Positions 13,327 through 25,946 of a stretch of DNA of 32,000 bases are shown here, in pieces (within the stretch, counting starts at the first letter, position 1; each line of letters starts with the position of its first letter). The notes beneath the pieces were generated by a model, which saw nothing but the letters and a program-made list of their open reading frames with translations, searched no databases and was not told the origin of the DNA. A program made the translations under genes and the position numbers. Source of the stretch: Desulfobulbus propionicus DSM 2032 (GTDB lineage Bacteria; Desulfobacterota; Desulfobulbia; Desulfobulbales; Desulfobulbaceae); NCBI RefSeq assembly GCF_000186885.1, contig NC_014972.1, positions 900,001-932,000 on the forward strand. Reading direction: 5' to 3'.

Positions 13327-13599
13327 GAGAATAGGTGTATTGGGGGCAGAACAATCTGTGAGCAATAGACCCGGTTCCGTCGCGGCGAGAGCAACCGGGG
13401 GAACGGGCGGGGCGGGAATCGTGCTGGCCGGTGAATATCTTGACAAGGTGTGCCGCCTGGCTGCGACATCCCCTCCGAAGTCCGCACTCCGGGGACACGT
13501 CCGCCAGAGGACAGGCGAATTGCCCCGCGCGGCGCTGTCATCCGCCGGCAGGCGCCTCGCAACATAGCCATTCTTGGTGGGGAAGTAAACAAGAACACG

Positions 13600-14355
13600 A
13601 TGAGGGATGAGGGATTCGTTGCGCCGACGGCCAAGGTCGCTCTGGTCAGCGCCGCCATGCCACGCCAACGACCGCCGTCTCCGGGAGAGATCATGGACGA
13701 GCACAATGCAGCACCACACGCACGCGACACGGAGGACAGCCGGCTCAACCGGGAACACGGGCATGCCCTGCACAATATTTTCAGCATCATAATCGCCAAC
13801 GCGGAAATGATCGGCGAGGAATCGAGGGGCATGGAGACGCTGCAACGGCGGCTCGACCGGATCATCGCGGCCAGCCGCCGGGGCGAGCAGTTGGTGGACG
13901 GGATACGCTCCCTTTCCAAGGCACGGCATGCGCCCCGGCCCGAACCCACGGAGCAGGCATCGCTTCCCACCGTTGCCGACGGGAGATTGGGCCGTGTGCT
14001 GATCGTCGACGATGAACCCGATGTGGTGGAGATTCTCCGGAGGTACCTTGAACGGGCCGGGTTGCAGGTTCATGGTTTCATCGACAGCCGCGAGGCCTTG
14101 AACGGGCTGCGCCGGGAACCGTTGGCCTACGATCTGGTGATCACCGACCTCGATATGCCGAACCTGGGTGGAATCGAGTTGCGCGAGCAGCTGCGGACCA
14201 TCCGTCCGGACCTGCCAGTCATCGTCATCACCGGCCATGAAGGGCAGTGTTCCGGGGGGCCGTTCTCGCTGTCCGGTGTCACGGAGTGGTTGTCCAAACC
14301 GATCAACCGGAACCACCTGTTGGACACGGTGGGGCGTCTTTTGCCGCCGGCTTGA
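13600..14355 (+). CDS. HisKA (DHp)-like phosphotransfer domain fused to a receiver domain; no HATPase_c domain
   Basis: The H-box-like helix EHGHALHNIFSIIIANAEMIGEE...LQRRLDRIIAASRRGEQLVDGIRSLSK aligns with the H-box region of the hybrid kinase at 24321-25946 (IAHDFNNLLAAILGYAEL...). An intact REC follows directly (VLIVDDEPD, LVITDLDMP, VIVITG, LSKP). The start is uncertain: ATG 13600 or ATG 13693. Confidence 0.7.
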   Translation: MRDEGFVAPTAKVALVSAAMPRQRPPSPGEIMDEHNAAPHARDTEDSRLNREHGHALHNIFSIIIANAEMIGEESRGMETLQRRLDRIIAASRRGEQLVDGIRSLSKARHAPRPEPTEQASLPTVADGRLGRVLIVDDEPDVVEILRRYLERAGLQVHGFIDSREALNGLRREPLAYDLVITDLDMPNLGGIELREQLRTIRPDLPVIVITGHEGQCSGGPFSLSGVTEWLSKPINRNHLLDTVGRLLPPA

Positions 14356-14467: not shown

Positions 14468-15847
14468 ATGGCTGAAATCCTGATTATCGACGATGACCCC
14501 CTGTTCGCGGAAACCGTGGCCGACAAGCTCGACAGCCTGCGGCACACGTCCCGATGCGCGCACACCTTGACCGCCGGCCTTGCCGCGGCGGTCGAGGGCC
14601 GTTTTGACGTGGTACTGCTCGATGTCTGTCTTCCGGACGGCAACGGCCTGCTGGCCATCGATCGGCTGCGTTCCGTGGCCTCGGACCCGCAGGTGATCAT
14701 CATCACCGGCCAGGGAGATCCGGATGGGGCCGAGCTGGCCATCCGTCACGGCGCTTGGTGCTATCTGGAGAAGAGCTCGATTGTCAAGGAGATCACCCTG
14801 CCATTGACCCGGGCCTTGCAGTACCGCCAGGCCCTGAGCGGACAGAAGGCCGTGCTCAAGACGGTGGAGCGCGACCAGCTGGTCGGCGAAAGTCCCCGTT
14901 TCCTCCAATGCCTGGATATGCTGGCCAAGGCGGCGGCAGCCGATGCCAGCGTCCTTGTTTCCGGGGAGTCAGGAACGGGCAAGGAGGCCTTTGCCCGGGC
15001 CATCCATGCCAACAGCCGCCGCAGGAGCGGCAACTTCGTGGTGGTCGACTGCACCGCCCTGCCGGAACAACTGGTGGAAAGCGTGCTTTTTGGCCATGTC
15101 AAGGGTGCCTTCACCGGCGCCGATCGGGCCAATCGCGGTCTGATCCGCCATGCCGACAAGGGAACGCTTTTTCTCGACGAGATCGGCGAGCTGCCGCTGG
15201 CCACCCAGAAAAGTTTCCTCCGTGTCCTTCAGGAACGCACCTTTTGTCCGGTGGGCAGCCAGGAGGAGTGTCACAGCGATTTTCGCCTGATTTGCGCCAC
15301 CAACCGCGATCTGGTGGCCATGACCGAGAAGGGGGTGTTCCGCGAGGATCTGCTCTACCGTCTGCGGGGACTGTCCCTGCACCTGCCGCCCCTGCGCGAG
15401 CGCGACGGCGACATCCCCCGGTTGGTGGAACATTTCCTCAGCCGCTTGGTGCAGCGGTATGGCCAGGAGAGAAAAGAGTGCTTGCCCGATTTCATGGACT
15501 ATCTCACCAGCTACGCCTGGCCGGGCAATGTCCGCGAGCTGTCCCAGGCGATGGAATCCGCCTTTGCCCATGCGGTCTATTCGCCGGTGCTCTTTCCGCA
15601 ACACCTGCCGGTGCATATCCGCACGGCCCATGCCCGAGCCAACGTTCGCGGCCATGAAACGATCCCGGCCGATGTTCCGAGTTCCGAGGCCATTCTTGCC
15701 TGGCGGGAGGCCAAGGATGCCTTTGAGCGCGAGTACACCCAACGGCTTCTCCGCCACAGTGCTGGCAATATCATGGAAGCCGGCCGACTGTCCGGCCTCT
15801 CCCGCACCCGCCTCTACCAGTTGATCAGGAAGTTTCAGCTTGGCTGA
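14468..15847 (+). CDS. Sigma-54-dependent transcriptional activator (REC - AAA+ - Fis-type HTH; NtrC family)
   Basis: REC domain (ILIIDDD, VVLLDVCLPDGNG, IIITG, LEKS). AAA+ domain with Walker A GESGTGKE, the sigma-54 contact loop GAFTGA, ELPLATQKSFLRVLQE and FREDLLYRL. C-terminal HTH GNIMEAGRLSGLSRTRLYQLIRKF. The ATG at 14468 has GGAG 5 nt upstream. The track start at 14396 is an upstream extension. Confidence 0.9.
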   Translation: MAEILIIDDDPLFAETVADKLDSLRHTSRCAHTLTAGLAAAVEGRFDVVLLDVCLPDGNGLLAIDRLRSVASDPQVIIITGQGDPDGAELAIRHGAWCYLEKSSIVKEITLPLTRALQYRQALSGQKAVLKTVERDQLVGESPRFLQCLDMLAKAAAADASVLVSGESGTGKEAFARAIHANSRRRSGNFVVVDCTALPEQLVESVLFGHVKGAFTGADRANRGLIRHADKGTLFLDEIGELPLATQKSFLRVLQERTFCPVGSQEECHSDFRLICATNRDLVAMTEKGVFREDLLYRLRGLSLHLPPLRERDGDIPRLVEHFLSRLVQRYGQERKECLPDFMDYLTSYAWPGNVRELSQAMESAFAHAVYSPVLFPQHLPVHIRTAHARANVRGHETIPADVPSSEAILAWREAKDAFEREYTQRLLRHSAGNIMEAGRLSGLSRTRLYQLIRKFQLG

Positions 15848-15958
15848 ATCCTTGGCTGGCTCTTCGCTCTGATCGACCCTGCCGCCGGCGCTTGTGTGCC
15901 GCTATCTCCTGCTCTACCGATGCAGGCCAGGTCGTGTACCGGTTGTTTGTTCCGAACT

Positions 15959-15993
15959 GTTCACTTTTCGGCACACTGTGCTTTTTTGTGAAC
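15959..15993. promoter_or_regulatory. Nested palindrome GTTCAC-N6-GCACA-C-TGTGC-N6-GTGAAC; candidate upstream activator site for the adjacent sigma-54 activator
   Basis: Read directly from the sequence. The outer arms GTTCAC (15959-15964) and GTGAAC (15988-15993) and the inner arms GCACA/TGTGC (15971-15981) are perfect inverted repeats. The centre lies about 115 bp upstream of the -24 element. A further inverted copy of CGGCACAC (as GTGTGCCG) lies at 15894-15901. Confidence 0.35.
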
Positions 15994-16090: not shown

Positions 16091-16106
16091 CGGCATGATC
16101 CTTGCC
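16091..16106 (+). promoter_or_regulatory. Sigma-54 (RpoN) -24/-12 promoter candidate: cGGCATgatccTTGCc
   Basis: GG (16092-16093) and GC (16104-16105) are spaced exactly as in the consensus TGGCAC-N5-TTGC. The element lies about 58 nt upstream of the ATG at 16164. It sits immediately downstream of a sigma-54 activator gene and of a T-rich tract (16069-16083). Confidence 0.6.
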
Positions 16107-24320: not shown

Positions 24321-25946
24321 ATGAGCCATCGCACCGATGAACACGATCAGTGGGATCACCTCAAGGATGCCATTGTCGGCTTGGGCGAGCGCTCCATCCG
24401 CAAGAGTTATTATCCCGAACTCAAGGCGAAGATCAAAGACCTCGATCAGCAGCGCGTTTTTTTTCAGTCCATCCTCAACAGCATCCCCGACGGGGTGGTG
24501 GTGATGGACCCCTCCGGCAAAATCAGGCAGGCCAACCCCGCCCTCTGCAGGATGTTCGGCTACAGCAACGAGGAGTTGGCAGGACTCGATCCTTCGGTGC
24601 TCTATGAAAACAACTGCGCAATTTTTCGCCATGACGATTTTCCCACCACCTGGTGCCGCCGCTTTGTCCGCAAGGATGGCCGCGTTTTCCTCGGCGAGAC
24701 CCTGAACAGCGAGATTCGAGACGATCAGGGAGGGTTGCTGGGTACCTTGGAGTTGATCCGCGATGTAAGTGAACGACTGAAGGTCATCCGGCAGCAGCGG
24801 CAATTGGAGGAACAGCTGCGCCAATCACAGAAAATGGCTGCCATTGGTACCTTGGCTGGAGGTATTGCTCACGATTTCAATAACTTGCTTGCGGCAATCC
24901 TCGGCTATGCCGAGCTGGCGCTCCTCAAGCTTCCCCCGGGTGGGGCGTTGCAGCGGGAGATTCGTCAGATCCTCAAGGCCGGCGGCAAGGCCTCGGAGCT
25001 GGTCAATCAGATCCTCGCCTTCAGCCGCAAGGAAACCACCAAACGCATCCCCATTCAACCCGGCGTCCTGATCAAGGAGGTCATCAAGTTGCTGCGGGGC
25101 ACCATCCCGTCGACCATCACCATTCGTGAACGAATTGCCGCCACCGACCGCATGATCCTTGCCAATCCCACCCAGTTGCATCAGGTGGTGATGAATCTCT
25201 GTACCAATGCCTTTCATGCCATGGAAGAACAGGGAGGAGAAATGACCCTGAGCCTGGAATCGGTCAGGAAGCTATTGCGGGAAAAGGAAGAAGAGCGCGA
25301 GTGGATCAGGATCAGTGTTGCCGATAATGGCTGCGGGATCGAACCTGCGACCCTGGAACGTATTTTTGAACCCTATTTCACCACCAAACCCAGCGGCAAG
25401 GGAACCGGCATGGGCTTGGCTGTGGTCCACGGAATCGTCGAAAGTCACGGGGGACGGATCGAGGTGAAGAGCACTGTGGGGCAGGGCACCACGGTGCAGG
25501 TCTACTTCCCGGTGGTGGCCGGGGTTGAAGCCCAGCGGCCGTGCAAGGAGGAACAGTCGCTCGTCGGCGGTGATGAATCCATTCTGGTGGTCGATGACGA
25601 ACAGATGGTGGCCGATTATCTCAAGGGTTTTCTTGAGCAACTAGGCTATCGGATCACGATTTGTAACGACGGCAGCAGCGCCTTGGCGTTGTTTGAGCAC
25701 AATCCCCAAGCGTTTGATTTGGTGATCACCGATCAGACCATGCCCGGCAAGACGGGTTTTGAGATGGCCCGCAACATGCTGGCCCTGCGGCCCGACCTGC
25801 CGATCATCCTTTGCTCGGGCTACAGCTCGGCCCTTTCGCCCGAGCGGGTCGCCAAGGCCGGCATCCGCGAGTTCATGATGAAGCCGGTCTCCCTGCATGA
25901 CCTCGCCCCGGTCATCCGCGCGGTTTTACCGAACAGACCATCCTGA
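24321..25946 (+). CDS. PAS-domain hybrid sensor histidine kinase (PAS - HisKA - HATPase_c - REC), apparently cytoplasmic
   Basis: PAS (FFQSILNSIPDGVVVMDPSGKI...), H-box GIAHDFNNLLAAILGYAEL, N-box VMNLCTNAFHAM, G-boxes VADNGCGI and GKGTGMGLAVV, and REC (ILVVDDE, LVITDQTMPGKTG, LCSGY, MKP). It starts 3 nt after the ADH stop. Confidence 0.9.
   Translation: MSHRTDEHDQWDHLKDAIVGLGERSIRKSYYPELKAKIKDLDQQRVFFQSILNSIPDGVVVMDPSGKIRQANPALCRMFGYSNEELAGLDPSVLYENNCAIFRHDDFPTTWCRRFVRKDGRVFLGETLNSEIRDDQGGLLGTLELIRDVSERLKVIRQQRQLEEQLRQSQKMAAIGTLAGGIAHDFNNLLAAILGYAELALLKLPPGGALQREIRQILKAGGKASELVNQILAFSRKETTKRIPIQPGVLIKEVIKLLRGTIPSTITIRERIAATDRMILANPTQLHQVVMNLCTNAFHAMEEQGGEMTLSLESVRKLLREKEEEREWIRISVADNGCGIEPATLERIFEPYFTTKPSGKGTGMGLAVVHGIVESHGGRIEVKSTVGQGTTVQVYFPVVAGVEAQRPCKEEQSLVGGDESILVVDDEQMVADYLKGFLEQLGYRITICNDGSSALALFEHNPQAFDLVITDQTMPGKTGFEMARNMLALRPDLPIILCSGYSSALSPERVAKAGIREFMMKPVSLHDLAPVIRAVLPNRPS

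Follow-up and report, generated by a model that had tools for sequence, protein, structure and literature searches.

In a 32,000-nucleotide (nt) stretch of Desulfobulbus propionicus DSM 2032 (contig NC_014972.1, positions 900,001 to 932,000; hereafter the window, whose numbering is used unless another sequence is named), we describe a protein, DHp-REC, in which the dimerisation and histidine phosphotransfer (DHp) hairpin of a histidine kinase is joined to a receiver domain (REC), with a short linker in the place of the catalytic and ATP-binding (CA) domain. Our favoured reading, held with moderate confidence, is that this protein is a CA-less derivative of CckA-like (AHDFNN-type) hybrid kinases that sets the phosphorylation of the sigma-54-dependent activator encoded beside it, through His24 of the hairpin and Asp152 of the receiver, acting as a relay and probably also as a phosphatase. 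The gene and its parts, the proposed target and the closest relative of both halves are the following.

13693..14355, + strand: DHp-REC gene, likeliest coding sequence, 220 amino acids (aa) plus stop, from the starts of homologues and the own-genome match at 913693-914352
13738..13920, + strand: DHp (HisKA-type) helical hairpin, residues 16-76 (helix 1, 20-43; helix 2, 48-76), from Pfam HisKA, AlphaFold2 and the hhalign alignment to the hybrid kinase DHp
13762..13764, + strand: codon of the H-box histidine, His24, which is invariant and presumably accepts the phosphate, from the homologue alignment
13774-13776, + strand: codon of Asn28 (His+4)
13921..13992, + strand: variable linker, residues 77-100, predicted to be disordered, in place of the hybrid-kinase CA domain, from the alignment and AlphaFold2
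13993..14346, + strand: receiver of hybrid-kinase type, residues 101-218, with pocket residues D106, D107, D152 (codon 14146-14148), T180 and K202
14468..15847, + strand: activator of NtrC type (REC-sigma54 AAA+-HTH_8), always the next gene downstream and the proposed target
24321..25946, + strand: hybrid kinase of PAS-HisKA-HATPase_c-REC order that has no HPt domain; each half of DHp-REC has its closest relative here

Profile searches gave this protein a strong receiver match (Pfam Response_reg, 1.6e-23, 83.5 bits against a cut-off of 30.2) and a marginal hairpin match: HisKA (PF00512) scored 24.1 bits in the 251-aa form of the protein, just below its 26.9-bit cut-off, 26.1 bits in a scan of the genome and 27.4 bits when the 69-aa DHp piece was scanned alone, and all 22 of 22 DHp pieces of the family scanned in this way matched HisKA (best 3e-08). 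These two were the sole Pfam matches; HATPase_c was absent at E<=1, which is the HisKA-without-HATPase_c pattern that a prior reading of the DNA (the sequence-only reading) had expected, and neither Hpt (PF01627) nor Spo0B-type Pfam families matched the protein. Using hhalign, the DHp piece aligned without a gap to residues 176-234 of the hybrid kinase encoded in the window (its AHDFNNLL... region; E 2.2e-5), bearing out the residue-for-residue correspondence and, together with the invariant His24 and the modelled helices, the recognisable H-box and two-helix DHp that had been claimed. The AlphaFold2 monomer (39 homologues, mean pLDDT 80) shows helices at 20-43 and 48-76, disorder at 78-96 and a receiver at 101-216, in which alpha4 is not predicted (low confidence). 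Since just 24 residues separate the hairpin from the receiver, there is no room for N, G1, F or G2 boxes, and the sequence-only reading was also right that a receiver with all pocket residues intact follows about 25 residues after the DHp. Foldseek searches of the PDB with the model returned receivers only (TM-scores, normalised to target length, of 0.8-0.88), and the DHp-piece profile matched only designed helical hairpins among PDB sequences, which makes that search uninformative for the hairpin. A cryptic ATPase or other fold, which would have overturned the description, was looked for and is ruled out by the Pfam results, the hairpin-linker-receiver model and the receiver-only Foldseek matches.

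Two features of functional kinases are missing from DHp-REC: it has no GHKL CA domain, and the residue after the histidine (His+1) is Ala rather than acidic. Such a HisKA match is rare in this genome, which is complete (3.85 Mb, one contig): among its 81 HisKA matches, only DHp-REC and one other have no HATPase_c downstream. That second match lies outside the window (G000:C1:2308170-2308331, - strand), in a 578-aa frame that has as neighbours a receiver gene and, at ~2309840-2310921, a complete kinase.

The one part of the earlier description that we would change is the start of the gene. An open reading frame (ORF) scan shows an uninterrupted + strand frame across 13444-14355 that offers GTG 13450, ATG 13600 and ATG 13693 as in-frame starts, of which 13600, giving 251 aa, had been chosen. 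The position where homologues start (M-D-E...) corresponds to 13693, and a Shine-Dalgarno sequence, GGGAGAG, lies 3 nt 5' of that ATG; a product of 220 aa rather than 251 is therefore the most likely, with the true start probably at 13693. The starts at 13600 and GTG 13450 are in frame and have no homologue support, so that the choice of 13600 was probably wrong, and the shift to 13693 leaves the DHp-receiver finding unaffected.

DHp-REC belongs to a family of uniform architecture. A word-indexed search found ~41 proteins that share 40-57% identity and measure 206-297 aa, most of them ~216 aa, and an exhaustive profile search found further distant members of 205-224 aa, including one annotated 'response regulator' in Desulfogranum japonicum; in a full-length profile run against 1.84 billion proteins, multi-receiver proteins crowded the results, and only the single-stretch matches were useful. 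Altogether, ~45 homologues of 205-224 aa from isolates and metagenomes all have the DHp-REC architecture with no stops or frameshifts, and databases label every member plain 'response regulator' or 'CheY-like'. Across 39 homologues, His24, Phe30, Ser31, Ala35, Asn36, Glu38, Met39, Arg56, Ala60, Arg63, Gly64 and Glu65 are invariant, as are D106, D107, D152 and K202 of the receiver pocket, with T180 nearly so, and the window copy departs from well-conserved columns at merely five positions, each time mildly. Ratios of non-synonymous to synonymous substitution (dN/dS) between family members range from 0.17 to 0.46, indicating purifying selection whether or not a kinase gene precedes DHp-REC. The suspicion that the gene is a truncated kinase pseudogene, voiced in the sequence-only reading, was rejected on the conserved architecture with its invariant His24 and Asp152, the purifying selection and the few column deviations.

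Counted with a DHp-only profile over 119 Desulfobulbaceae genomes, true DHp-REC proteins (scores of 57 bits or more and frame lengths of 213-376 aa, versus at most 45 bits for ordinary kinases) occur in 14 genomes: 11 of 46 in the window's own genus, 2 of 8 in a second and 1 of 13 in a third, and the named relatives are Desulfobulbus species. Judged by these sequence matches, the family is confined to the Desulfobulbaceae, and the module itself recurs outside them, embedded in larger proteins. CA-less DHp-REC modules of this embedded kind were seen in P0160, an 802-aa protein of a Magnetococcales metagenome-assembled genome (REC-DHp-REC-REC-HisKA-HATPase_c), and in P0268, a 631-aa protein (REC-PAS-PAS-HisKA-REC).

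The next gene after DHp-REC encodes the same NtrC-type activator in all 14 genomes and at all metagenomic loci, and this activator is 66-88% identical between loci, while DHp-REC itself is merely 35-55% identical across them. The 112-nt spacing between DHp-REC and the activator ATG (14468) is as previously given, and the activator appears to drive a sigma-54 promoter immediately downstream, near 16091-16106. A possible kinase partner is far less constant: a PAS-HisKA-HATPase_c kinase gene (412-425 aa) lies just upstream, overlapping the DHp-REC start, at 8 of the 19 informative genome and metagenome loci, but 11 of the 14 species genomes are without it and only 3 have it. Its presence requires at least 3 changes on the activator tree, which points to repeated loss. 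Since the activator pocket is intact in those 11 genomes, the partner that stays constant beside a phosphorylatable activator is DHp-REC rather than the operon kinase. Searching the whole D. propionicus genome for an ortholog of the relatives' upstream kinase gave none; the best match (36% identity) was the window hybrid kinase, and relocation of such an ortholog elsewhere in the genome was rejected on this result.

A natural co-loss bears on the same pairing. Genome G079 (100% complete) is the only one with an ortholog of the activator but without DHp-REC, and it keeps rlmL, the leader motif and the CheW synteny. In its activator (L095, G079:C1:17675-22051, at 1483-2877 on the - strand), the receiver reads IIDKD for IIDDD and IIIADQ for IIITGQ, so that the changes of DD to DK and Thr to Ala alter two of the five pocket residues, whereas the activators that follow a DHp-REC all keep the acid pair and the Thr. 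The G079 activator is, on this sequence, probably independent of phosphorylation. G079 also has no ortholog of the hybrid kinase.

The residues around the histidine (counts from 44 family sequences for the DHp and from 49 for the receiver motifs) bear on the activities of the DHp. Only 8 of 44 sequences have an acidic residue at His+1, where Ala prevails, whereas all 44 carry Asn or Thr at His+4, Ser at His+7, Ala at His+11 and Asn at His+12, and 43 of 44 carry Met at His+15. As the specificity residues of EnvZ and HK853 show, the positions from His+7 to His+15 listed here touch the partner receiver, and His+7, +11 and +12 correspond to the EnvZ specificity residues T250, L254 and A255. Their invariance fits a highly conserved docking partner such as the receiver of the activator; they differ from the corresponding positions of both kinases of the locus (T/A..G/A..GY), which argues for a partner specificity of its own. 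In four HisKA kinases, an acidic His+1 was needed for kinase activity only, and Thr or Asn at His+4 for phosphatase activity only (Willett & Kirby 2012, PMC3510030).

This residue pattern is where the most serious alternative enters, namely that DHp-REC is a dedicated, receiver-gated phosphatase, whose hairpin would only dephosphorylate the activator under the control of its own receiver, with no net phosphate passed. We consider this possible but unlikely. In its favour are the Asn or Thr at His+4 in every sequence with the kinase-specific acidic His+1 lost in 36 of 44, the invariant docking face, the perfect linkage to the activator, and the phosphatase role proposed for proteins with HisKA and no HATPase in the census of Galperin (PMC5847659). 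Yet a phosphatase alone leaves the input to the activator unexplained, most genomes having no operon kinase for it, and it is not obvious why the phospho-pocket of the target should decay once its phosphatase is gone. Moreover, an absolutely invariant histidine would be unexpected in a pure phosphatase; His mutants of several HisKA kinases retain phosphatase activity. The activator linkage, the co-loss, the docking face, His+4 and His+1 fit phosphotransferase and phosphatase alike.

Taken as a family, the receivers have features of a phosphotransfer intermediary, and the window copy departs from two of them. A gapless alignment of its receiver with that of the window hybrid kinase gives 34% identity; family receivers have xTGY after beta4 in 41 of 49 cases, and their beta5 switch position (K-3) is aliphatic in 43 of 49, with alpha4 weak or absent in the model. 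Brüderlin et al. describe such features as marks of the intermediary receivers CckA-Rec, CpdR, MrrA and SdrG ('FATGUY' type), which carry F/x-A-T/S-G-Y after beta4, a weak or absent alpha4 and no aromatic beta5 switch residue (PMC9981736). CpdR is the fourth-best NCBIfam match of DHp-REC, far below its cut-off.

The mechanism that we favour would run as follows. DHp-REC would dimerise through its DHp into a four-helix bundle and would be incapable of autophosphorylation, so that a kinase encoded elsewhere would phosphorylate Asp152 of its receiver. In relatives the donor could be the upstream PAS kinase; in D. propionicus the hybrid kinase (24321-25946) is the most likely candidate. The phosphoryl group would pass from Asp152 to His24, and His24 would exchange it with the receiver of the sigma-54 activator 112 nt downstream, making the module, in functional terms, a Spo0F and a Spo0B fused in one protein. 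Dephosphorylation of the activator would probably be a second task of this DHp surface, on which the Asn at His+4 is conserved, and DHp-REC would thereby set activator phosphorylation in both directions.

Several points weigh against this mechanism. The direction in which phosphate moves through DHp-REC is something that we infer. In the window copy, TGH (VITGH) replaces TGY, and the residue at K-3, the beta5 switch position, is Trp. The co-loss in G079 is a single event that fits a phosphatase or another receiver-directed role equally well. Fifteen HPt domains encoded elsewhere in the genome could serve hybrid kinases. Lastly, the hybrid kinase is syntenic in 12 of the 14 DHp-REC genomes, but in two genomes it stands beside rlmL without DHp-REC or the activator, which weakens any idea that it is an obligatory partner; by synteny, the link between the two is frequent and not obligatory.

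A still less likely alternative is that DHp-REC forms the substrate half of a split kinase, with the CA domain of a separate kinase phosphorylating His24 in trans, as a heterodimer or by docking, and the phosphate moving on to its own receiver. The CA donor would be a His-less PAS kinase in some Desulfobulbus species and, in D. propionicus, a kinase encoded downstream or at an unlinked site, for instance the hybrid kinase. What makes this idea attractive is the pair of loci L001 (6779-8017) and L035 (1400-2647), where the upstream PAS-HisKA-HATPase_c kinase, overlapping the DHp-REC start, reads ARRFNN against AHQFNN in its relatives, a change of His to Arg. The N, G1, F and G2 boxes of this His-less kinase are intact, and the two copies are 79% identical with a dN/dS of 0.14; by this measure the kinase is selectively maintained. 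The DHp-REC protein is then the sole His-bearing DHp of the operon, leaving a CA without a histidine beside a histidine without a CA. CheA3/CheA4 offer a precedent, and the EnvZ DHp and CA function as separate polypeptides. Proteins with HisKA and no HATPase make up 3.66% of SMART HisKA proteins, for which split kinases have been proposed (Amin et al. 2013, PMC3591291). Against it, the acidic His+1 is absent in 36 of 44 sequences, including members that stand beside the His-less kinase (GHAL), other clades retain the histidine in their upstream kinase, and most genomes, that of D. propionicus included, have no upstream kinase; a His-less CA partner is encoded alongside in L001 and L035, and not in D. 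propionicus (best match, 36% identity). If it were true, a DHp/CA histidine kinase would exist as an obligate two-protein enzyme whose catalytic partner has been swapped while the DHp-REC/activator pair was kept.

We think it quite improbable that the hairpin has no phosphoryl role and serves for dimerisation or as a decoy, either blocking a kinase in the manner of RetS or binding the activator receiver stoichiometrically, in a protein that would otherwise be a single-domain response regulator. The uniform 'response regulator' or 'CheY-like' annotation and a whole-protein HisKA score just under the Pfam cut-off would suit such a view, but His24 is invariant, Asn28 nearly so and the receiver-contact residues are kept, and a decoy needs none of these. 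That DHp-REC is an artefact or a decaying remnant, whether through frameshift or truncation of a hybrid kinase or through misassembly, is scarcely credible: its domain order is indeed that of a hybrid kinase minus PAS and CA, but ~45 independent sequences share the architecture free of stops and frameshifts and under purifying selection, and the genome is complete on one contig.

Upstream of DHp-REC lies one further feature that is shared with relatives.

13408..13602, + strand: operon leader/promoter region, homologous to the region before the upstream kinase in relatives, from comparison with them

It contains TTGACA at 13440-13445 and the conserved leader motif GCAACATAGCCATTCTTGGTGGGGAAGTAAACAAGAAC at 13559-13596, an instance of a ~38-nt motif, GCAACATAGCCAWWCTC-N5-GGAAGTAAACAAGAAC, that precedes the first operon gene at nearly all loci, between the divergent rlmL and the signalling genes; it was also found at L001 6685-6722, at L023 4584-4622, and in L095 between rlmL and the activator. 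As the leader directly precedes the DHp-REC gene in D. propionicus, the upstream kinase ORF is cleanly missing there. Known RNAs and a sigma-70 promoter were set aside as explanations, since Rfam gave no match in the conserved leader and neither a sigma-70 nor a sigma-54 consensus promoter is present; the motif may be an operator or a leader RNA. An 8-mer, GTGTGCCG/CGGCACAC, has all four of its window copies (13448-13455; 14540-14547, - strand; 15894-15901; 15969-15976, - strand) within 2.5 kb that take in the DHp-REC promoter, the beginning of the activator gene and the stretch ahead of the sigma-54 promoter. The activator may bind to this 8-mer; the count alone is not significant, with 13 of 100 shuffles also reaching four copies.

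Downstream of the activator, the locus mostly continues with genes for a small protein, a triple-CheW protein, a PAS chemoreceptor, a GNAT, an HDAC, an iron-containing alcohol dehydrogenase (Fe-ADH) and the hybrid kinase. In L112 (G051) and L114 (G045), both from Desulfobulbus, the Fe-ADH and hybrid kinase genes lie directly beside rlmL, and the block of DHp-REC, activator, CheW, methyl-accepting chemoreceptor, GNAT and HDAC genes is absent; the block thus behaves as an insertable or deletable island. At another locus (L003 6128-7567), in a Desulfobulbus genome without the upstream kinase, an IS66-family transposase sits between the leader motif and DHp-REC. In metagenomic L040 (2284-4192), only the receiver part of DHp-REC matches and the activator is split over two frames, a copy that is either decaying or affected by sequencing error.

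Phosphorelays are usually described with HPt domains or with the special cases Spo0B and ChpT, and genome censuses hold thousands of proteins with HisKA and without HATPase. These are termed 'incomplete HKs' (histidine kinases) in P2CS and are also described in a preprint (10.64898/2026.02.27.708494); Galperin, in 2018, suggested phospho-acceptor, transfer or phosphatase roles for them and noted an RHH-HisKA-REC architecture (PMC5847659). DHp-REC resembles these 'incomplete histidine kinases' in having HisKA with a conserved histidine and no HATPase_c. It differs in that the censuses define categories without a characterised member of its architecture, while DHp-REC is a defined fusion with a fixed activator linkage; the class is thus recognised in censuses, and no member of this architecture is characterised.

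DHp-REC offers a compact and tractable case of this class, with 220 aa, one His, one Asp and a fixed NtrC-type target, and its natural variants mimic the key genetics, comprising operons with a normal kinase, with a His-less kinase, with no kinase, and with neither DHp-REC nor an intact activator pocket. The direction of phosphate flow, once established, would define how kinase-less DHp modules work and would correct the blanket 'response regulator' annotation.

The analogy with Spo0B and ChpT drawn in the sequence-only reading stands as a functional likeness only. With both, DHp-REC shares a kinase-derived DHp hairpin with a phospho-acceptor histidine, the lack of ATP-dependent autophosphorylation and a place between receivers, phosphotransfer being a prediction here; with ChpT it also shares the class of partner, since AHDFNN-type, CckA-like hybrid kinases without HPt are the class that uses the DHp-type transferase ChpT. 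Membership of either family does not hold: Spo0B and ChpT both keep a degenerate CA-like domain and are separate from their intermediary receiver, whereas DHp-REC has a 24-residue linker in its place, a fused receiver and no match to a Pfam family of this kind. To the CckA-like hybrid kinase of the window (24321-25946) it is related through the gapless DHp, the 34% receiver identity and a shared RPDLP...[ST]GY...GIRE..KP pattern, and it differs in having neither PAS nor CA, in Ala versus Asp at His+1, and in specificity positions that read S..I..AN in DHp-REC versus A..A..GY in the kinase. The isolated DHp of EnvZ (domain A) can dephosphorylate its cognate regulator OmpR, but it is an experimental fragment. 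PhyT is described as both phosphotransferase and phosphatase (PMC5898713), and it differs in its ChpT-like two-domain fold with no fused receiver. From HPt phosphotransferases, DHp-REC is set apart by the absence of an Hpt profile match. CheA3/CheA4 of Rhodobacter sphaeroides are comparable for the L001/L035 clade only, in which a CA without a histidine likewise stands beside a histidine without a CA; they belong to another kinase class (CheA P1/P4, not DHp/CA), and the D. propionicus genome has no such partner.

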